From: a bacterium
GTDB lineage: Bacteria; Sysuimicrobiota; Sysuimicrobiia; Sysuimicrobiales; Humicultoraceae
Length of the DNA stretch: 13,249 bases
Direction: 5' to 3'
NCBI GenBank assembly: GCA_041497675.1
Contig: JBGQGY010000103.1
Location: 1-13,249 of the forward strand
Under the pieces are notes generated by a model. That model was given only the letters and a program-made list of their open reading frames with translations. It did not search any database and had not been told where the DNA came from. Positions 201 through 9,946 of this stretch are shown here, piece by piece. Each line of letters opens with the position of its first letter. The first letter of the stretch is position 1. The position numbers and the translations under genes were made by a program.

Positions 201-520
201 AATATCGCCTCCCTGAGAGTTGCCTGATTTCGACCGCTTGGACATCGGAGACCCTGCCGGGGTTTAGCGCCTTTGTGTCTGGCGCGCTCTCTCTTCTCAA
301 ACCATTGAGGCCCGGAGTGAAGCACGGTCCCACGGGAGGCCTAGAGCAGCCGCTTCTTGGGCATACTCTAGGTCACGTCCGGTGAAGCGTTGCCGGACGT
401 TGTTTTCTGGGAGAGAGCTCAGGCGATGGCCTTCCTCGCCTCGTGCACCACGAAGAACTCGCTCCGCGAGCGACCGCCACGGTCGCGCAAGATTCTTTTC
501 TGTCGGGGACTGCACCTCCA

Positions 521-3500
521 ATGAAGTCCCCTGGACACCACCGGTCTCAGGAGGTCCGCACCTGGGTCAACGGGGATGTGACCCTTAGACTCCGGGGCCT
601 TTCAAGGGTGGCCGGAGCCGCCGCCATCGTGGTTGGCGCGCTCACACTGGTCGGCTGGTCATTCAACGTCCTGTGGCTTACGAGCATCCTGCCTGGTCTT
701 GCCACTATGAAGCCAAATACCGCGGTGGCGTTCGTGCTTGCTGGGGTGTCGTTGGAGTTCCTCTGGCCTGAAGAACCCTACCGCCGGGGACGGGTCGTGG
801 CAGGTTTATGCGCGTTGGCCGTCCTTCTCGTGGGCGTATTGACGCTCGCAGAGTATGCGGGTGGTCGGCACCTGGGCATCGACCTATGGCTGTTCCGGGA
901 GGCGACAGAAGCGGAAGGTACGTCCTTCCCCGGCCGAATGGCGCCAGCCACGGCGCTTGCCTTCGCGCTGGTGGGAACGGCGCTCCTGCTCGTGCATCGG
1001 GGACGTATCCGGGCAGCACAAGTCCCCACCCTCGGCGCCGGGTTCATCGGCCTGTTGGGCGTCCTGGGCCATGCCTACGGAATTAAAGCCTTCTACGGAC
1101 TGGCCGCCTCATACACCACGGTCGCCGTGAACACGGCCGCCACGTTCCTGCTGTTGGCCATCGGTGTGCTCTGCGCCCGACCTACCCAAGGCATGATGGC
1201 CCTGCTGACCAGCGACACGGGCGGGGGAGTGGTCGCGCGGAAGCTCTTGCTCCCTGCGGTCGTCGTCCCCCTCTTTCTTGCGTGGGTTCGACTCTGGGGT
1301 CAGCGAGCGGGTCTCTACGGAACAGAATTTGGCCTCGCGCTCTTTGCGCTCTCAAACATTCTTGTCTTCGCGACCCTGGTGGCCTGGAATGCGGGAGCGC
1401 TCCATCGTACCGATCGGGCACGTCGGCAAGCCAACCAGGCGCTGGCCAAGCAAACGGATCGCCTCGAAGTGTTGCACAAGATCGATCAAGATATTCTGAC
1501 GGCACAAAACCCGGAAGCCGTAGCGGCAGCGGCTCTTCACCACCTCTGGAACCTGGTCCCCTATCGGCGAGCTAGTTTCTTACGGTACGACCTCGAAGCG
1601 AATGAGGCCAGGGCGCTAGCTTCGCACGCCAGCAACGCTACTCCGTCACTGATCCCTGGGACACGCTTTCCGCTGGACACGCTAGGGGATATCGGAGACA
1701 TGCTCAATGCCCTCAAACAGGGCAAGACGTACGAGCAAGACATGGTGAAGTTCTCCCAGCACGTGCCTGCTGTGCAAGCGGCGCGTGCTGCGGGAATTCG
1801 CACCACGCTAGTCGTTCCCTTGCTCGCTGAAGCTCAACTGATTGGCGCCCTGCATTTTGGGCTCGCCAGTACTGATGTCCTGACGCCGGAAGACCTCGAC
1901 ATTGCCCGCGAGGTGGCCGACCAGGTAGGGATTGCCATTCAGCAAGCGGAGCTGCGCCAGACTGTGCAGCGCCATACGGCAGAGCTAGAGCAACGCGTCG
2001 CCGCCCGCACCGAGGAGCTGGGGGAGGCCACGAGGTTCCTGGAGCAGCTGGTGGCGACGACCCCTGGGGTGATCTACCGCCGCCGGCCCGGCGACCTGGC
2101 TATGACCTATGTGAGTGGGAACGTCGAGCGGGTACTGGGCTTTCGTCCGGAAGAGATTGTGGGGGTCCCGAGGTTCTGGTACCAGCGCATCCACCCCGAT
2201 GATCGCGCGCGGCTCGACGCCGACAATGAGCGCGCGTGGAAGGAAAGGCAGCCGCAGGTCGAGCGCGAGTACCGGTTTCGGCACCCGGACGGACAATACC
2301 GGTGGCTGCAAAGTGTGGTGCGCTTCGAATATGATGAAGCCGGAGCTCTGGTGGACATCGTAGGCTTCGTGTTGGATGTCACCGACCGCAAGCAGATCAT
2401 GGAAGAACTTGCCCGAACCAGCCACGAACTGCGGGAGGCCAGAGACTCCCTCGAAACGCTGGTCAGCATGAGCCCCTCCATCATCTTCGAGACCGATCTC
2501 AAAGAAGGGCGCGTCAAGTATTCTAGCCCGAACATCGAACGCATCGTCGGGTACACGAGGGAGGAGATCCAGGTTCTCTCGTCTTGGGAAGAGCATATCC
2601 ATCCCGAGGATCGCCAGAGCTTCAAGACCGGCATGCAGGAGGCGATTAGCAACAAGGCCGCTCAATTCGAACTGGAGTACCGCTTTCAGCACAAGAACGG
2701 CGACCCCCGCTGGCTCCACAGTGTGGTCCGTATCGCCTATGACGAGGGCGGTCGGCCCACCACCGTCTTCGGCTACAGTCAAGACATCACCCTGCGCAAG
2801 GCTGCCGAGGAAACCCTGAGGCAAGTTCGACTCGAAGCCGATCGCGCCAATCAGGCGAAGAGCGAGTTCCTCTCCCGCATGAGCCACGAGCTGCGAACGC
2901 CGCTCAACGCCATCCTGGGGTTCGCCCAACTGTTGGAGATGGACTCTCTCAATCCAGAGCAAAGCGAGGGTGTGGCGCACATTCTCAAGGGCGGCCGCCA
3001 TCTTCTTGGTCTCATCAACGAGGTGCTGGATATCGCGCGGATTGAGGCGGGGCGGTTGGACCTTTCCCTGGAGGCAGTCTCGGTGGACGAGGTGGTCCGG
3101 GAGAGCCTCGATCTAATCGCGCCGCTGGCGGCCGAGGGAAACATCGGGGCCGAAACCGCGCCGGCTTCGGGGTTCGTGCTGGCCGATCGTCAGCGGCTCA
3201 AGCAGGTCCTCCTCAACCTCCTCTCCAACGCGGTCAAGTACAACCGCAGACGGGGAACGGTCGCGCTGTCCTTCGAGAACATGCCCGCGGGTCGGCTGCG
3301 CATCAAGGTGAGTGACACCGGTCCCGGCATCGCTCCCGAGCGGTTGGAGCGGCTCTTCATCCCCTTCGAGCGGCTCGGGGCCGAGCAGTCCGGGGTTGAA
3401 GGCACCGGCCTCGGCCTGGCCCTCTCCAAACGGCTGGTCGAGGCTATGGGTGGTACCCTCGGCGTCGAGAGCATGCCCGGCCAGGGCAGCACCTTCTGGG

Positions 3501-3991
3501 TGGAGCTCGCGCTGGCCGAAAACCCGATTCAGCGTGTGGACCAGACGGGCGTCGCTCTGCCGGCCGCGGCTGAACTGAACGCCTCCCGCAAGGCCCGGAT
3601 TGTCCTTTACATCGAAGATAATCTCTCAAACCTGAAGCTCATCCAGCGTCTCCTGGCCCACCGGCCCGAGGTGCGGCTCATCCCCGCCATGCAGGGGCGT
3701 CTGGGGCTGGACCTGGCTCGCGAGCACCGGCCACATCTGATCCTTCTGGACCTCCATCTGCCCGACATCCCGGGCGAAGAGGTCCTACAGCGCTTGCAGG
3801 CTGACCCGGAGACGCGGCCCATCCCGGTGGTCATGGTGAGTGCCGACGCCATACCAAGCCAGGTCAAGCGGCTGCGCGCCGAAGGCGCGCGGGATTATCT
3901 GACCAAACCACTGGACGTAAAGAAGTTCCTCGCTCTCCTGGACGACGTGTTGGCAGATCGAGCGTTGGGACCGACAGGAAGAAAGGGCTGA
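521..3991 (+). CDS. Membrane-bound hybrid sensor histidine kinase (multi-TM, GAF, 2x PAS/PAC, HisKA, HATPase_c, C-terminal receiver)
   Basis: H-box [20 protein letters not shown]-box [17 protein letters not shown]1 VSDTGPGI; G2 [17 protein letters not shown]...LILLDLHLP...VSAD...LTKP; two PAS domains with IHPDD/IHPED and RW..S; GAF 'LVVPLL..QLIGAL...[15 protein letters not shown]'. Start uncertain (GTG 443, ATG 521 or GTG 578). Confidence 0.95.
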
Positions 3992-4025: not shown

Positions 4026-5039
4026 CTAGTAACGCTTCCAGGGACGCCATGGCAGCCTCCAGCGAGTCTTCGCCGGAGCGCCAGCCTGCTGCTGCGCATC
4101 GAACTCAACCCGCAGGCTCGCGTAGTCGCGGGCAAGGTTCTCGGAGTACGCCAGGAGGTCGGTCAGGAGGCGTGCTCCGTCGTTGCAGGGCGGGGTGCAC
4201 TCGACCGGACCTCCCAGGTACTCGACGGGATCTTCAATGATCCGGGGATCAGCCATCTCATCTTGTCTGACAGCATAGTGGGTGGCCGCCTGCCGGAAGC
4301 CGGCCGCAAAGCGCTCAGGATCCGCTTTGAGGAGCTCGAAGGGGTCGGCGTACTGAAAACCCCATGACGGATGCCGATCCGGCATGGCAAAGTACTGCAG
4401 GCGTTGGATGGCGACTTTGGAAGCGTACTGTCCCGGCGAGCGGACGGGAAAGTGAGCAAGATAGGCCCGTTCGCATTGGCGGGACGGGCACGGCGCCCCA
4501 TCGACCTCCAGGGCATGGCTGCCCTGGGTCACCCTGGCTGCCGGCAGGCGGGCCAGCGGGCCCGGGATCACCACCTTCGCCCAGGGATAGCCTTCCTTGA
4601 CGAGCCGGTGGCGAATCCGGCGCACCGGGTTGGTCTCGGAAGGGTCGTCGCCGGCGCGGGGCACGTACGAGCGCCAGAAGACGTGCAGCAGGGCTCCTGC
4701 CGAAACGTCATCCGCGCCGTGCGCAAAGATCCCGCCCCCCGGGCCGGCGACGAAGAACTCGTCAGCGTCCAGGGGAAGCACCCAATCCGCGCCGCAGTCG
4801 AGCGCAACCGTGTGCATCAGCCGTGTCATTCGCTTCCACTGCAGATGCCCGATGGATGGGTCGTCGACCACGTCGAGGGACAGCCCGCGCCGCTGGAGCG
4901 CCGACAGGATATCCCTGGTGCCGTCGGTGCTGCCGTTGTCGAGGACGATCAGGTGATCCGTCACGGCGACGGTGTGGCGGACGAAGGCCTCTACGATGTC
5001 GACCTCGTTCTTCACGCAGCTGATGGCGACGACGCGCAC
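4026..5039 (-). CDS. Glycosyltransferase family 2-like protein (Glyco_tranf_2_4-type)
   Basis: VKNEVDIVEAFVRH, VLDNGSTDGT, DWVLPLDADEF (DxD), later QGSH and HFPVRS motifs typical of this GT-A subfamily. Confidence 0.9.
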   Translation of the reverse strand: MRVVAISCVKNEVDIVEAFVRHTVAVTDHLIVLDNGSTDGTRDILSALQRRGLSLDVVDDPSIGHLQWKRMTRLMHTVALDCGADWVLPLDADEFFVAGPGGGIFAHGADDVSAGALLHVFWRSYVPRAGDDPSETNPVRRIRHRLVKEGYPWAKVVIPGPLARLPAARVTQGSHALEVDGAPCPSRQCERAYLAHFPVRSPGQYASKVAIQRLQYFAMPDRHPSWGFQYADPFELLKADPERFAAGFRQAATHYAVRQDEMADPRIIEDPVEYLGGPVECTPPCNDGARLLTDLLAYSENLARDYASLRVEFDAQQQAGAPAKTRWRLPWRPWKRY

Positions 5040-5140: not shown

Positions 5141-5578
5141 ATGTTGCAGGCCATTTGGAACAGGAAGCGTACGAGCGAGCGCGGGTTCACGCTGATCGAA
5201 CTCATCGTCGTGATCGCAGTTCTTGGTATCTTGATCGCGCTGGCGATGCCCCGGTATCTTGGCTCGCGCAAGAGCGTGCTGGTGGCCGAAGGGGACAACG
5301 CGCTCCTGGAGATGAAGACGATGTCGTGGGCCTATTACCAGCAGTACAACACGTTCGTGGGGCTGGACACGGGCTTCCCGGGTGTGATCGGGTTCCAGGC
5401 GCCGGGCACGGCCTGCTGGATGTTCTCCATCCCGAGCTCTACGGTCACGTCGGTGACGCTGCGGGCGACGGGCAACACGACCGGCCGGACGCAGTGCAGC
5501 ATCCTGTTGGGTTCGGAGCAGATCAACGTGACGCTGAACAACACCGGCGCGGTGACGCGCGCGACCAGCGGATTGTAA
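5141..5578 (+). CDS. Type IV pilin-like protein (prepilin N-terminal cleavage/methylation motif)
   Basis: Basic 15-aa leader ending RG|FTLIELIVVIAVLGILIALAMPRY (G-1, F1, E5, P22); two Cys in the globular part; SD GGAGG upstream of ATG. Confidence 0.92.
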   Translation: MLQAIWNRKRTSERGFTLIELIVVIAVLGILIALAMPRYLGSRKSVLVAEGDNALLEMKTMSWAYYQQYNTFVGLDTGFPGVIGFQAPGTACWMFSIPSSTVTSVTLRATGNTTGRTQCSILLGSEQINVTLNNTGAVTRATSGL

Positions 5579-5624: not shown

Positions 5625-5701
5625 CGGGCCGTAGCGCAGCTTGGTAGCGCGCCTGAATGGGGTTCAGGAGGTCCGCGGTTCAAATCCGCGCGGCCCGACC
5701 A
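5625..5701 (+). tRNA. tRNA-Pro (anticodon GGG)
   Basis: 77 nt cloverleaf: acceptor CGGGCCG/CGGCCCG + ACCA, D-arm GCGC-AGCTTGGTA-GCGC, anticodon arm CCTGA-AT GGG GT-TCAGG, T-arm CGCGG-TTCAAAT-CCGCG; encoded CCA. Confidence 0.98.
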
Positions 5702-5839: not shown

Positions 5840-6325
5840 TCAGCGGTTCGGGCAACGTACATAGTCAAAGAACGCGTCCTTTGGATTGTTGAATGAAATG
5901 ACCACCCCGGAGTCGCTCTCAGTGTCCCAGTAGCCACGATATCTCGAATCGTTCAGCGCTTGAATCTGTATCAGTAACCCGTCCTGCTGCGGGGCAATGA
6001 AGATCGTGATGGCGCCCCTCTCGCGCACTCCGAAGTTACGGAATTCCTTCTCAGGAACGGGCACGTAAAGACCATCATTTTGGGTGAGCCATTTACCGCT
6101 CGCGTTCTCCAGCCACTGATATCGCCCGTCGTGCGTGTACGCATTCCGTAACTTGTCACACTGACCCCGCTGCGCCCACTCCCCGACTAGCAGCGTATAA
6201 TCGATAGCACGGTTCTGGCAAGCGGAGGTGAAGGAGAGCAACAGTCCCAACAAGATGGAATTGCGCAGAAGTGACCGCGTTGGCCGTCGATGCTCAAGGA
6301 TGATCTGTATGCCCCTCAAGGGCAT
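5840..6325 (-). CDS. Hypothetical lipoprotein, possibly lipocalin-like beta-barrel
   Basis: Basic stretch, hydrophobic core and lipobox-like FTSA-C, then LVGEW (GxW), aromatic beta-strand pattern and a second pair of Cys. Frame is open back to 6478; ATG 6325 (or a nearby TTG) is the more plausible start. Confidence 0.65.
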   Translation of the reverse strand: MPLRGIQIILEHRRPTRSLLRNSILLGLLLSFTSACQNRAIDYTLLVGEWAQRGQCDKLRNAYTHDGRYQWLENASGKWLTQNDGLYVPVPEKEFRNFGVRERGAITIFIAPQQDGLLIQIQALNDSRYRGYWDTESDSGVVISFNNPKDAFFDYVRCPNR

Positions 6326-6607
6326 CACCCCTCTGCCACGCAAGAAATTGATGCCCCCTCGAACCACATACCAGTCCTGGACATAGTATTCGACCGCGCA
6401 CTGCGTTAACCGCCCTGCGGTCCCTGGCGTTGGATGCGGAGCAGTGACGTGGTGACCAGCAGACCGGGAGGCGGCCAAGGTCGCCGTTCCGATCGGTGCC
6501 TGGACCGTCGCCCCTCATCCTTCAGATGTCTACTGGAAACGGTGAAGAGCAACTAGCCTGCGGGCTGGCATGCTGGAGGCCCCCCGCAAAATCAACTCTC
6601 CGCCCGA

Positions 6608-6874: not shown

Positions 6875-7069
6875 ATGAGCACCCAGCAGATTACGGTACA
6901 GGAGATCACAGCGAGGGAGGCTTACGACGCGGCGGATGCCATCATCACAGCGCTCCCGAACGCGCCGAGGCGGGCATTGGCAGGGGAGATCCACGATCTC
7001 TTCCTGTACCTCAAGTGCCAGATGCACAGGGAAGGACCCCGTTCGGTGCCCATGCCACGGCCCGGCTGA
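6875..7069 (+). CDS. Small helical hypothetical protein (64 aa)
   Basis: AAGGA SD before ATG 6875; MSTQQITVQEITAREAYDAADAIITALPNAPRRALAGEIHDLFLYLKCQMHRE..., two amphipathic helices. Confidence 0.6.
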   Translation: MSTQQITVQEITAREAYDAADAIITALPNAPRRALAGEIHDLFLYLKCQMHREGPRSVPMPRPG

Positions 7070-7151
7070 CCACCGCGGTCACGATTGGTTCTTGTTACCT
7101 TCCTGTTGCCTCACGGAGGCCGAAAGCCGCGTACTGAGATCAAACCACTCG

Positions 7152-7280
7152 AAGCGAACCGAAAGGTGAGCCGAACGCCAAAAGCGAAGTAGGATGCCGG
7201 ATTCGGCGTCCTGACTGCATTTCCGCCGTTGCGTAGTCAGGGTTCTGGCTCATCGCTTGTCCTCCCGACTAGGAAAGGCG
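7152..7280 (+). ncRNA. Candidate structured cis-regulatory leader RNA (no family recognised)
   Basis: Nested pairings: 7152-7157/7253-7258, GAAA hairpin 7158-7167, 7168-7176/7242-7251, 9-bp hairpin 7191-7212, hairpin 7213-7238; alternative SD-sequestering hairpin 7254-7263/7271-7280. Confidence 0.4.
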
Positions 7281-7286
7281 CAAAAC

Positions 7287-8282
7287 ATGAGGCTGTCCGT
7301 CGTCATCCCCAGCCGGAACGCGGGGGACACGCTTGCGGCCGTGCTGGAGGGCCTCGTCACACAGGACGTCCCCGCGGGCACATTCGAGGTCATCGTCGTG
7401 GACCGTTCCTCAGACGATACCGTTGAGCGTCTGGGGCGTGTGGACAGGCGGTTCCCGCTGCGAATCGTCCGCCAGGTCGGTCGTGGCCGCGGGGCGGCCC
7501 TCAACCAGGGGGTCGCCAACGCGGGCGGCGACGTTCTCCTCTTCATGGACGCCGACGTCATCCCGCGGCCCGGGTTGCTCGAGGCGCACCTCAAACACTA
7601 CGAGGTCGGTGGAAGGCTGCGCGCGGTGCAGGGCCGTACCGTCCCAGACCCTGGGACGCTGATCACTCCCTTCATGCGCACCGAAAACACGCTGCCGGAT
7701 CTGACCCGGCGCCGGCGGGACGATATGGCGCCCTTTCACGTCTTGGGGAGGAACTTCTCCGTATCCCGCCCTGGGTTCGATGCCGTGGGGGGCTTCGATG
7801 AAGCGTTCCGCAACTACGGGTGGGAGGACATCGAGTTCGCCGTCCGCTTCCACAAGGCCAAGGGGCGCATCATGTACGAACCCGAGGCCCTGGCCGTGCA
7901 TTGTCACCCGATCACCGTGGAGGCGGCGTCTGCGCGTCAACGGGAAAACGGTCGCGGCGCGGTCTACTTCTGGCGCAAGCATGGCCGACCGCTGGCCCTC
8001 GGCCTCCAACTCGAAGTCCATCCGTTGCTCCTGCCGTTGAAGTGGCTGGTCTACCGTACGGGGCCGGCGACGTGGTTCCTCGAGGCTATCCGTCCCTGGG
8101 CCGAGCGGCGCGACGTCTTACTCTTGCTCAACGAATGTTATCATCACATGACCTGGCGCGGCTTTTACCAAGGTGTCTTCGAGGCCTTCCGCGAGCCGCC
8201 GCCGCCGGTCGCGCCCCGCCGGCAGGAGACAAGAACGAGCCAGGTAAGAGTTGGAGGAAGGAGGCGAGGACAGGATGGGTGA
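7287..8282 (+). CDS. Glycosyltransferase family 2 protein
   Basis: LSVVIPSRN, FEVIVVDRSSDDT, ALNQG, LLFMDAD (DxD), GGFDEAFRNYGWEDIEF; SD AGGAAAGG before ATG 7287. Confidence 0.93.
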   Translation: MRLSVVIPSRNAGDTLAAVLEGLVTQDVPAGTFEVIVVDRSSDDTVERLGRVDRRFPLRIVRQVGRGRGAALNQGVANAGGDVLLFMDADVIPRPGLLEAHLKHYEVGGRLRAVQGRTVPDPGTLITPFMRTENTLPDLTRRRRDDMAPFHVLGRNFSVSRPGFDAVGGFDEAFRNYGWEDIEFAVRFHKAKGRIMYEPEALAVHCHPITVEAASARQRENGRGAVYFWRKHGRPLALGLQLEVHPLLLPLKWLVYRTGPATWFLEAIRPWAERRDVLLLLNECYHHMTWRGFYQGVFEAFREPPPPVAPRRQETRTSQVRVGGRRRGQDG

Positions 8283-8484
8283 GTTCACAATTCTCAGAAG
8301 CGCTGTTGGACAGTGGCACTGGCACCTGCAAGCCGCGAACAATCATATTATCGCGGATTCGGGAGAGGCCTACCCGACGAGGCCCGGAGTTCTTGCCGCG
8401 ATTGCCCGGGTGAAACGCGAAGTGTTTCAAGCAACGATTCGAGACGGCACGCAGCCATCCACCGGGCTAGACGTCTATCGATGA
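8275..8484 (+). CDS. YegP/DUF1508 (UPF0339) family protein, single domain, 69 aa
   Basis: F.I.....GQWHWHLQAANNHIIADSGEAY.......AI matches the family pattern (G.W.WRL.A.NG..IA.SGEGY); purine-rich SD region; overlaps the upstream gene by 8 nt. Confidence 0.88.
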   Translation: MGEFTILRSAVGQWHWHLQAANNHIIADSGEAYPTRPGVLAAIARVKREVFQATIRDGTQPSTGLDVYR

Positions 8485-9458
8485 AGACCGCACGATGGCT
8501 GGTCGGGTCCGCCCTTTGGAGGTTCCGGCCGTTCATTCGGTCGATCTTCAGTGAGTTTCGCCTCGCGGAGCAGTTCTCCAACCCCAGCATGCACGAGAAG
8601 ATGCTGCTCGACGCGGTGCGGTGCGAAGCCTTTCGCGCGGCCCTGGCGCAGGTCGTGCGACCGGGCGACGTCGTGCTCGACCTGGGAGCCGGGACCGGGT
8701 TGCTTTCGCTCTTTGCCGCGTCGTCCGGGGCGAAGCACGTGTACGCGGTTGAGATGAGCCGGATCGCCGACATGGCCGAGCGGTTGATCGACGCCAACAA
8801 GATGCGCGACAAGATCACCCTCGTTCGAGGTAACTCCCGGAACGTCAGCCTGCCCGAACGCGCCGACGTGCTCGTCACTGAGACGCTGAGCAGCTGCGGG
8901 TGCGACAACGAGAACATCGTCGAGTACGTGCTGGACGCCAAACGAAGGCTGCTGAAACCCGGCGCCAGGGTCATCCCCGCCGCTGTGGAGACGCTCTTCA
9001 CGCCCATCCAGTCCGATGAATTTGGTCTTGGACGGCTGGCGCCGGCCTTATACGGTTTTGACTACACGCCGTTCCGCAGCGTGCGGTATTCCGGCCCCGG
9101 CATGCAGCAGGCGTCCGGCAGGTCGTTCGTCGAGCTCGCCGAGCCCCTGCGGTGCTGGCCTATCGACCTCAGACAGGACGAGGTGCCGGCGCCTGGGGAG
9201 GTCCGCCTGGATTTTCAGATCACGCGCGAAGGACGTGTCGATGGTTTTCTGGGCTGGTTCGACGCCCTGCTGGCGCCCGGCGTGTCGCTCACGAACTCGC
9301 CGCACCGGCCTCCAACAAGCTGGGAGCAGTTGTACTTTCCCGCGGCGAATCAACCACGCGTGCGACCCGGACAGATCCTGCGGCTGACGGTCGATCCCCG
9401 GCTCAAGGGGGGCGGGTCACACTGGGCGTATCAGATCGAGGTGCGCGACCGCGTCTGA
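8481..9458 (+). CDS. SAM-dependent methyltransferase, protein arginine methyltransferase (PRMT)-like
   Basis: HEKMLLDAVR, motif I VLDLGAGTG, post-I VYAVE, ADVLVTE...NE double-E loop, LLKPGARVIP, C-terminal GFLGWFD..L and LTNSP..PPTSWEQLYF; ATGA overlap with the DUF1508 stop. Confidence 0.9.
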   Translation: MKTARWLVGSALWRFRPFIRSIFSEFRLAEQFSNPSMHEKMLLDAVRCEAFRAALAQVVRPGDVVLDLGAGTGLLSLFAASSGAKHVYAVEMSRIADMAERLIDANKMRDKITLVRGNSRNVSLPERADVLVTETLSSCGCDNENIVEYVLDAKRRLLKPGARVIPAAVETLFTPIQSDEFGLGRLAPALYGFDYTPFRSVRYSGPGMQQASGRSFVELAEPLRCWPIDLRQDEVPAPGEVRLDFQITREGRVDGFLGWFDALLAPGVSLTNSPHRPPTSWEQLYFPAANQPRVRPGQILRLTVDPRLKGGGSHWAYQIEVRDRV

Positions 9459-9460
9459 GA

Positions 9461-9805
9461 TCAGACCGTGCGGGCGAGCAACCCGAGAACGTGGAAGGCC
9501 ACCAGCATGACGTAGACGAAGGCCGCTCCTCGCAGGATCGAAAGCACCGGCAACCGGCTTCGATCGCGGCGCGCGATCACACAAAGGCTGACGGCCAGCA
9601 GGACGAGCACGACGGACTTGACGATGGTCGGCCACGGCGTCAGGAGCAGCGGTCGCAGCATGGGGTTCAGTTCCTCGATGCCTCGTTCGGCGGCGACGTA
9701 CGTAAACAACAGATCGAGGGCGTTGGCAAGCAGCAAGACTGCATACCATCGCCATAAGGCTTTGGCTGTAGCCGGCAACAACAGCCGTGCGCCCCGGGCC
9801 GCCAT
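9461..9805 (-). CDS. DUF5658-like small integral membrane protein
   Basis: Three hydrophobic helices with N.LD..FTY.....G..E.NP and a K in TM2; SD-like AAGGACGGGGG before ATG 9805. Confidence 0.8.
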   Translation of the reverse strand: MAARGARLLLPATAKALWRWYAVLLLANALDLLFTYVAAERGIEELNPMLRPLLLTPWPTIVKSVVLVLLAVSLCVIARRDRSRLPVLSILRGAAFVYVMLVAFHVLGLLARTV

Positions 9806-9866
9806 CGACGCCCCCGTCCTTCGTGCTCGACAGGCGCCCGAAGCGAGCCGGCCAGCCGATCAGCCT

Positions 9867-9946
9867 CTTCGGCAGCCCGGCCGGCCGGTGATACGGCCCC
9901 GATGACTTTGCGCCCCCGGATCGCTCCGGGTTTGCCCGTTCGGAAG
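9867..9946 (-). ncRNA. Cyclic di-GMP-I (GEMM-I) riboswitch
   Basis: Minus strand reads CUUCCG AACG GGCAAA CCCGGA GCGA UCCGGG GGCGCAAAG UCAUCGG GGCCG UAUCAC CGGCC GGCCGGGCUGCC GAAG: P1, P2 with GNRA loop, conserved GGCAAAC, CGCAAAG and CUGCCG segments; ~60 nt upstream of the DUF5658-like start. Confidence 0.9.

Follow-up and report, generated by a model that had tools for sequence, protein, structure and literature searches.

A bacterial PRMT-family methyltransferase gene is coupled to a YegP/DUF1508 gene in a single, narrow lineage of an uncultured bacterium from sediment

The orphan domain YegP/DUF1508 occurs widely. In the parts of the published work considered here, the single-domain, HVO_2922-like form was reported to homodimerise (PMC11601603), and an sPC4/Whirly-like nucleic-acid-binding role was proposed for the family (PMC12065111). 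Bacterial PRMT-like "peptide methylases" (PRMT, protein arginine methyltransferase) are said to be the radiation from which the eukaryotic PRMTs derive, based on comparative genomics by Aravind and co-workers; the part of that study considered here assigns the closest relatives among bacteria to secondary-metabolite operons of an antibiotic-like kind, alongside dioxygenases, non-ribosomal peptide synthetases as well as amine oxidases (PMC3417536). Our literature search returned neither an experimentally defined substrate of a bacterial PRMT homologue nor a paper that connects DUF1508 with PRMTs. Here we analyzed a stretch of 13,249 nucleotides (nt), contig JBGQGY010000103.1 of assembly GCA_041497675.1 (Sysuimicrobiota, Humicultoraceae), hereafter termed the window. 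It carries three head-to-tail open reading frames (ORFs) on the plus strand, encoding a GT2 family glycosyltransferase, a DUF1508/YegP protein and a type-I-PRMT homologue, with overlapping stop and start codons. A sequence-only reading of the window had proposed that the three genes form one glycosylation-plus-methylation module, while noting that no pathway was known to join the three families; we likewise found no paper linking them. The operon was found to be real and to be confined to one narrow lineage of an uncultured sediment bacterium, which from the names given to homologues probably belongs to the Armatimonadota. What is new is the coupling of a bacterial PRMT-family gene to a YegP gene in that lineage.

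Both the overlapping arrangement and the three domain assignments of the sequence-only reading were borne out, the latter by their Pfam scores (Table 1). The GT2 gene overlaps the DUF1508 gene by 8 nt (ATGGGTGA), and the DUF1508 gene overlaps the PRMT gene by 4 nt (ATGA). When further sediment-metagenome runs were matched against positions 7000-9900, contigs from four out of four spanned both junctions, and the arrangement is therefore not an assembly chimera; the four runs come from four studies, which may belong to one campaign. The DUF1508 gene has a strong Shine-Dalgarno sequence (GGAGGAAGGAGG) and the GT2 gene a possible one (AGGAAAGG) 8 nt 5' of its start. By reading of the sequence we saw no obvious Shine-Dalgarno sequence for the PRMT gene, which is therefore probably translated by reinitiation after DUF1508. 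The three genes are probably co-expressed, in agreement with the coupled expression that had been implied from the overlaps. No sigma-70-like promoter sites were found between positions 6400 and 10000, and the three terminator-like sites found there (2.1 expected) included none between the three genes on the plus strand; both scans are uninformative for this phylum. Rfam gave no match in positions 7152-7286 or in the DUF1508 leader, and positions 7140-7300 were not unusually structured (folding z = -0.82). A strong 9-bp GC-rich hairpin (GGAUGCCGG..CCGGCGUCC) is located about 75 nt 5' of the GT2 start.

The coupling of DUF1508 to the PRMT gene was found in a sister locus, the 2180-nt metagenome contig L073. 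This contig has the same ATGA overlap, a DUF1508 protein with 93% amino acid identity, a PRMT homologue with 78% identity and a convergent DUF5658 gene that is 88% identical. The upstream gene in L073 is KdgD/DapA-like and not a GT2 gene. The ratio of nonsynonymous to synonymous substitutions (dN/dS) between the window and L073 was 0.067 for DUF1508 (dS 0.54), 0.16 for the PRMT gene (dS 0.88) and 0.084 for DUF5658. DNA homology between the two loci starts about 75 nt 5' of DUF1508, directly after the stop codon of the upstream gene in L073, and over window positions 8185-8280 the two sequences agree in 70 of 96 alignment columns, with almost all of the matches lying at or beyond about 8200. 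Read in the DUF1508 frame, L073 encodes ..APPVSPACRRQQRARQ 5' of DUF1508. Of the 3' end of GT2 it retains a vestige of about 16 codons (..APPVSPACRRQQRAR), with the stop codon TAA changed to CAA. Since L073 holds this vestige, the trio was present in the common ancestor of the two lineages, as judged from the alignment, and GT2 was subsequently deleted in the lineage of L073. The alternative that GT2 never belonged to the unit, which L073 at first suggested, was overturned by the three-frame comparison. The KdgD/DapA-like gene was of no help in ordering the events, since its relatives in the genome of the window are only 39% and 33% identical. The comparison of the two loci indicates that GT2 is dispensable and that DUF1508 and the PRMT gene, both under purifying selection, form the conserved core.

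Further lineages may carry the same genes. The longest contigs were of equal size for DUF1508 variants and PRMT homologues in three cases (5991, 1970, and 400,494 nt), and for a DUF1508 variant and the 82% identical GT2 homologue in one (1381 nt). Matching lengths and sources suggest further lineages with the DUF1508-PRMT pair and one more with GT2-DUF1508. For P0019, an 83% identical PRMT homologue on the 400,494-nt contig of the European Nucleotide Archive, only a 203-amino-acid (aa) C-terminal piece matching PRMT_C alone is recorded, and the longest contig of the intact DUF1508 variant P0397 is likewise 400,494 nt. A split or a frameshift may have affected the PRMT gene in the P0019 lineage.

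Judged from its motifs and its modelled fold, the methyltransferase is a genuine member of the PRMT family with the catalytic motifs intact apart from the middle residue of the THW loop. A profile of 18 homologues (A1) matched PRMT6, PRMT1, CARM1, PRMT8, PRMT2, and PRMT3 in the PDB with E-values of 2e-43 or weaker, and the double-E loop and THW region were aligned in these matches. Motif I (VLDxGxGxG) for binding S-adenosylmethionine (SAM) is present as VVLDLGAGTGLLS. Its residues D67, G69, G71, and G73 and the post-I acidic residue E91 are invariant in the 18 homologues and align to PRMT6. The two double-E glutamates, E134 and E144, do not vary within A1 and fall on the SEWMG...HES stretch of PRMT6 in the alignment. 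The THW loop reads T279-S-W281 in the window, with W281 invariant in A1. An AlphaFold2 (AF2) model had a predicted local distance difference test score (pLDDT) of 79, and the top Foldseek matches against the PDB were all PRMT6, PRMT3, PRMT8 or CARM1 (E 3e-24, template modelling (TM) score 0.67-0.74). Only short helices, 182-185 and 196-202, were modelled where the dimerisation arm would sit. The family is large in bacteria, with 1071 matches at E<=1e-3 among 8000 scored candidates, and many of the homologues of about 50% identity are labelled Acidobacteria or Armatimonadota. In PRMTs the double-E loop is the guanidino-binding device. Given that motif I, the post-I Glu, both double-E glutamates and, in the THW loop, Thr and Trp have been retained, we predict an active enzyme that uses SAM to N-methylate a guanidino group (arginine) of a protein or peptide.

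The DUF1508 protein (P0001) matched the solved UPF0339 proteins 6Q2Z (E 2.2e-4), 2K8E, and 3BID with E-values of 2e-4 to 4e-4. It fell below the cut-off of the HVO_2922 equivalog NF041908 of NCBIfam (41 bits, cut-off 90). In the AF2 model residues 3-51 form a beta-beta-beta-alpha unit, with strands at 3-8, 14-19, and 25-28 and a helix at 36-51, followed by a tail modelled as disordered (pLDDT 47-58) that ends in GLDVYR. A word-index search with DUF1508 returned only one protein and a full HMMER search of 1.84 billion representatives was used instead, which detected 469 relatives (E<=1e-3). Above about 53% identity to the window protein there was a single cluster. It consists of 11 sequence variants of 69-77 aa, none less than 91% identical. 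Each of the 11 carries the GLDVYR tail unchanged, and it is missing from the other aligned single-domain relatives.

Based on these observations we tentatively propose that the enzyme is an arginine/guanidino methyltransferase and that YegP is its lineage-specific substrate or partner. Translation of the PRMT gene would depend on termination and reinitiation after DUF1508, and the YegP protein would serve the methyltransferase as dedicated substrate or specificity partner in this lineage. The likeliest methylation site would be the lineage-specific disordered tail ending in GLDVYR, or R55. The GT2 would be a membrane-associated sugar transferase of an ordinary kind, encoded on the same transcript and not needed for the pair. 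The narrower proposal that YegP/DUF1508 is a dedicated substrate or substrate-presenting subunit, with an Arg methylated in the GLDVYR tail or at R55, we regard as rather unlikely. A complex prediction for the PRMT (A1) and the DUF1508 protein (A4) gave a score of 0.00 in both runs, that is "no answer", and is evidence neither way.

Five points weigh against the proposed pairing. First, the His of the THW loop is replaced by Ser in the window protein; the middle residue of this loop is S, H or N among relatives of at least 58% identity, and His in the acidobacterial members. Second, no RGG/RG-type motif was seen in the DUF1508 protein by reading of its sequence. Third, DUF1508 was found beside only one of 30 other PRMT-homologue loci, that of L073; among the 29 loci that lack it are 12 of the 13 with at least 47% identity, so the enzyme family can do without DUF1508. 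Fourth, the pair in the window and in L073 is one inherited arrangement, i.e., one evolutionary event, and not a repeated independent association. Fifth, 4-nt overlaps are very common in this genome. A crude start/stop scan counted 583 same-strand overlaps of 4 nt and 70 of 8 nt among 2340 closely spaced coding-like pairs. Such overlaps are a sign of operon organisation and of no special functional tie, and we therefore speak of an operon and not of a special system.

It is quite possible, if somewhat doubtful, that the genes have no functional link and that three unrelated accessory genes came together by accretion under a shared promoter. YegP would then be a general stress or nucleic-acid-binding mini-protein, the PRMT would methylate another protein or peptide, and GT2 would take part in making envelope glycans. 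Overlapping junctions that are generic in this genome fit such an origin, as does the loss of GT2 without loss of DUF1508 and the PRMT gene. So does the patchy occurrence of the PRMT and GT2 genes as accessory genes in varied contexts, together with the rarity of DUF1508: PF07411 was found in one of 41 genomes of relatives and in one of 94 genomes of the phylum (tallies that include G010 and G019), both times in the window's own genome, and not in the 93 other phylum genomes searched. What accretion explains less well is that the DUF1508-PRMT junction and the leader survived a deletion that ended 75 nt 5' of DUF1508. Junction and leader are about 89% identical where the flanking genes have dS of 0.5-0.9, and the PRMT gene lacks an evident ribosome-binding site of its own.

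The sequence-only reading had made co-occurrence of the trio in other genomes one check on its proposal. Co-occurrence was found outright in the window's own species and, by the vestige in L073, as an ancestral state. Beyond this narrow clade, none of the other PRMT and GT2 loci examined showed it. A hidden Markov model (HMM) of the DUF1508 alignment (A4), run over 97 loci (701 kb, 10,046 ORFs), matched only the window's own copies and L073. PRMT orthologues of 63% identity or less and GT2 homologues of 60% or less were never found with the other two genes in the loci examined. The GT2 belongs to a paralogue-rich, often tandem family present in 28 of 40 related genomes searched, and none of 11 GT2-homologue loci in relatives (at most 60% identity, often tandem paralogues) had DUF1508 or a PRMT gene within 1.5 kb. 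The small ORFs directly 5' of other PRMT homologues (L022, 99 aa; L025, 72 aa; L026, 148 aa; L027, 140 aa) could not be assigned to a Pfam family at E<=0.01 and were not matched by the DUF1508 HMM. The PRMT homologues of L026 (5998-7002) and L027 (1084-2082), from gammaproteobacterial metagenome-assembled genomes, carry a C-terminal SEC-C zinc motif, and each is preceded by an ORF of 140-148 aa without family.

These results bear on the idea of a single glycosylation-plus-methylation system acting on one target, with DUF1508 as adaptor or substrate and the Arg-rich tail of GT2 as methylation site. The genes are translationally coupled, the trio was together in the ancestor of the clade, and the 82% identical GT2 and DUF1508 probably share one 1381-nt contig in a further lineage, all of which would fit such a system. 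However, the L073 lineage dropped GT2 and kept DUF1508 and the PRMT gene under purifying selection, the 11 GT2-homologue loci gave no association, and the tail turned out to be a frameshift product with three different endings among close GT2 homologues. We consider a coherent three-part system very improbable.

The origin of the tail could be followed in three-frame translations. A 1-nt length difference near position 8214 bypasses the ancestral GT2 stop codon, and from there the GT2 frame translates the purine-rich ribosome-binding leader of DUF1508 (GGA GGA AGG AGG to G-G-R-R) as far as the TGA at 8280-8282. In the frame of DUF1508, the window gives ..AGRRQERAR followed by TAA, which resembles the C-terminus ..APACRRQERAG of P0127, an 82% identical GT2 homologue. 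P0127 lacks the Arg-rich tail and ends in ..RRQERAG. Homologues of 92% identity (P0126 and its cluster) end in ..RLQESG or ..RFQEGG and are also without the tail, and more distant homologues have unrelated endings at similar length. Alignment of these termini identifies the tail as a recent, unstable by-product of frameshift read-through through the DUF1508 leader. Being young, unstable and a by-product, it is a poor candidate for a conserved methylation site, and its earlier designation as a methylation target is not upheld.

The neighbourhoods of the PRMT orthologues raise another possibility, namely that this clade is tied to envelope or exopolysaccharide biosynthesis and acts as a methyltransferase on a glycan or on a glycan-machinery protein, so that the link to GT2 is meaningful and DUF1508 incidental. 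Glycosyltransferases were found within about 3 kb in three of 11 informative orthologue loci of at least 47% identity (G012, L075, and L078). The orthologue in G012 (58% identical) lies within a same-strand polysaccharide cluster (L070, G012:C110, 3142-11736) with the gene order GNAT, GT4, GT4, PRMT, second class I methyltransferase, Polysacc_synt_3 (Wzx-like) flippase, 122-aa ORF, GT4. L075 has GT2 and Acetyltransf_6, and L078 has GT2 and two Acetyltransf_6. Chance proximity would be roughly 4-7%, as calculated from the 19 GT2 and 23 GT1/4 matches in the 3.97 Mb of the window's genome alone. On the other hand, glycosyltransferase families, strands and positions differ between the three loci, and L075 and L078 are probably close kin, i.e., the loci are not independent. 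The remaining eight have DinB (upstream of the 63% identical PRMT gene in G001, of the same genus), dnaX/ybaB, MOSC, SatD or Rce1-like genes or unknown neighbours. The guanidino-binding double-E loop likewise speaks against a glycan as acceptor. We find this role in glycan biosynthesis improbable. A distant PRMT-like subfamily (28-39% identity) adjoins asparagine-synthase-like genes in L025, L028, L034, and L071 (G018), in L034 also an NTP_transf_5 gene, and from the gene content this looks like a peptide context, of the ribosomally synthesised and post-translationally modified peptide (RiPP) or lasso type.

Table 1. Features of the operon and of the surrounding window. Positions are those of the window; protein lengths are in amino acids (aa).
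Feature	Position	Strand	Remarks
GT2 family glycosyltransferase, first operon gene	7287-8282	+	331 aa; Pfam PF00535 Glycos_transf_2, E 3.9e-23, 82.7 bits (cut-off 23.3)
Single-domain DUF1508/YegP/UPF0339 protein	8275-8484	+	69 aa; Pfam PF07411, 47.4 bits (cut-off 22)
Type-I-PRMT-family SAM-dependent methyltransferase	8481-9458	+	325 aa; PRMT_C PF22528, 32.6 bits (cut-off 27); class I methyltransferase models
GT2/DUF1508 overlap	8275-8282	+	8 nt
DUF1508/PRMT overlap	8481-8484	+	4 nt
Lineage-specific Arg-rich GT2 tail (..RRQETRTSQVRVGGRRRGQDG)	8214-8282	+	1-nt length difference near 8214 bypasses ancestral stop
Ancestral GT2 stop TAA, now out of frame for GT2	8245-8247	+	Three-frame translation; alignment to L073
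DUF1508 leader with Shine-Dalgarno sequence	8248-8274	+	Non-coding in L073; doubles as GT2 tail codons in the window
Shine-Dalgarno sequence of DUF1508	8253-8264	+
Junction-spanning contig X3	7108-9025
Junction-spanning contig X4	7000-9025
Junction-spanning contig X5	8121-8901
Junction-spanning contig X6	7000-9900
GC-rich hairpin	7191-7211	+	9 bp
Hybrid sensor kinase	443-3991	+	1182 aa; GAF, two PAS, HisKA, HATPase, receiver
Glyco_tranf_2_4 gene (second GT2)	4026-5039	-
Type IV pilin-like gene	5141-5578	+	N_methyl motif
tRNA-Pro(GGG)	5625-5701	+
ORF without family	5840-6478	-	212 aa
DUF5658 membrane-protein gene	9461-9805	-	114 aa
c-di-GMP-I-GGC-type riboswitch aptamer match	9867-9945	-	54.6 bits, E 8.5e-11; gathering score 59

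The pilin-like gene and the second GT2 gene that had been noticed nearby are both present (Table 1), the latter after the hybrid sensor kinase gene and the former with the tRNA-Pro(GGG) directly 3' of it. Between about 5500 and 7000 the G+C content is lower (0.58-0.59, compared to 0.62-0.70), and this stretch contains the ORF without family and about 800 nt without family match. The riboswitch aptamer match, which scored just below the gathering score, sits 5' of the DUF5658 gene, and the same match with the same score was found in L073 (1966-2044). A major facilitator superfamily (MFS) gene precedes the DUF5658 gene, and G001 shows synteny for these two genes.

Should the narrower proposal of YegP as dedicated substrate or substrate-presenting subunit prove true, bacterial PRMT homologues would gain their first defined enzyme-substrate pair, and the orphan YegP family its first biochemical point of entry. 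The YegP-PRMT coupling, kept after deletion of the upstream gene, offers a cheap two-protein system that could assign function to both. Sequence comparison favours neither the three-part glycosylation-plus-methylation idea nor the Arg-rich target tail, which saves effort on both.

Compared to described systems, the GT2 of the window is most similar to the EpsD-type and MftF-type enzymes, its best matches in NCBIfam, with which it has the GT-A fold and the DxD motif in common (D88-x-D90, invariant in 14 homologues, A3). It scored far below both equivalog cut-offs (143.7 against 370 for EpsD, E 8.5e-42; 110.8 against 280 for MftF, E 7.5e-32), and no mycofactocin or eps genes were found nearby. 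The DUF1508 protein has the same domain of about 50 residues as E. coli YegP (2K8E), Haloferax HVO_2922 (6Q2Z), and NMB1088 (3BID), and is single-domain like HVO_2922. It differs from other YegP proteins by the extra 18-residue disordered tail ending in GLDVYR, and among the forms met here it alone is coupled to a methyltransferase.

The likeness of the window enzyme to the eukaryotic type I PRMTs (PRMT6, PRMT1/Hmt1, CARM1, PRMT3, and PRMT8) lies in the Rossmann SAM domain and the PRMT beta-barrel; both have motif I, the post-I Glu and the double-E loop, and their THW loops agree in Thr and Trp. The window enzyme is about 27-30% identical to these, has Ser for the THW His and a short dimerisation-arm region, and is without N-terminal targeting domains; it is bacterial and encoded in an operon. 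Compared to the peptide methylases, as these appear in the part of the survey considered here (PMC3417536), the window locus has no dioxygenase, non-ribosomal peptide synthetase or amine oxidase genes, and unlike the secondary-metabolite operons described there, the PRMT clade of the window is found in varied contexts that are partly glycan-related.

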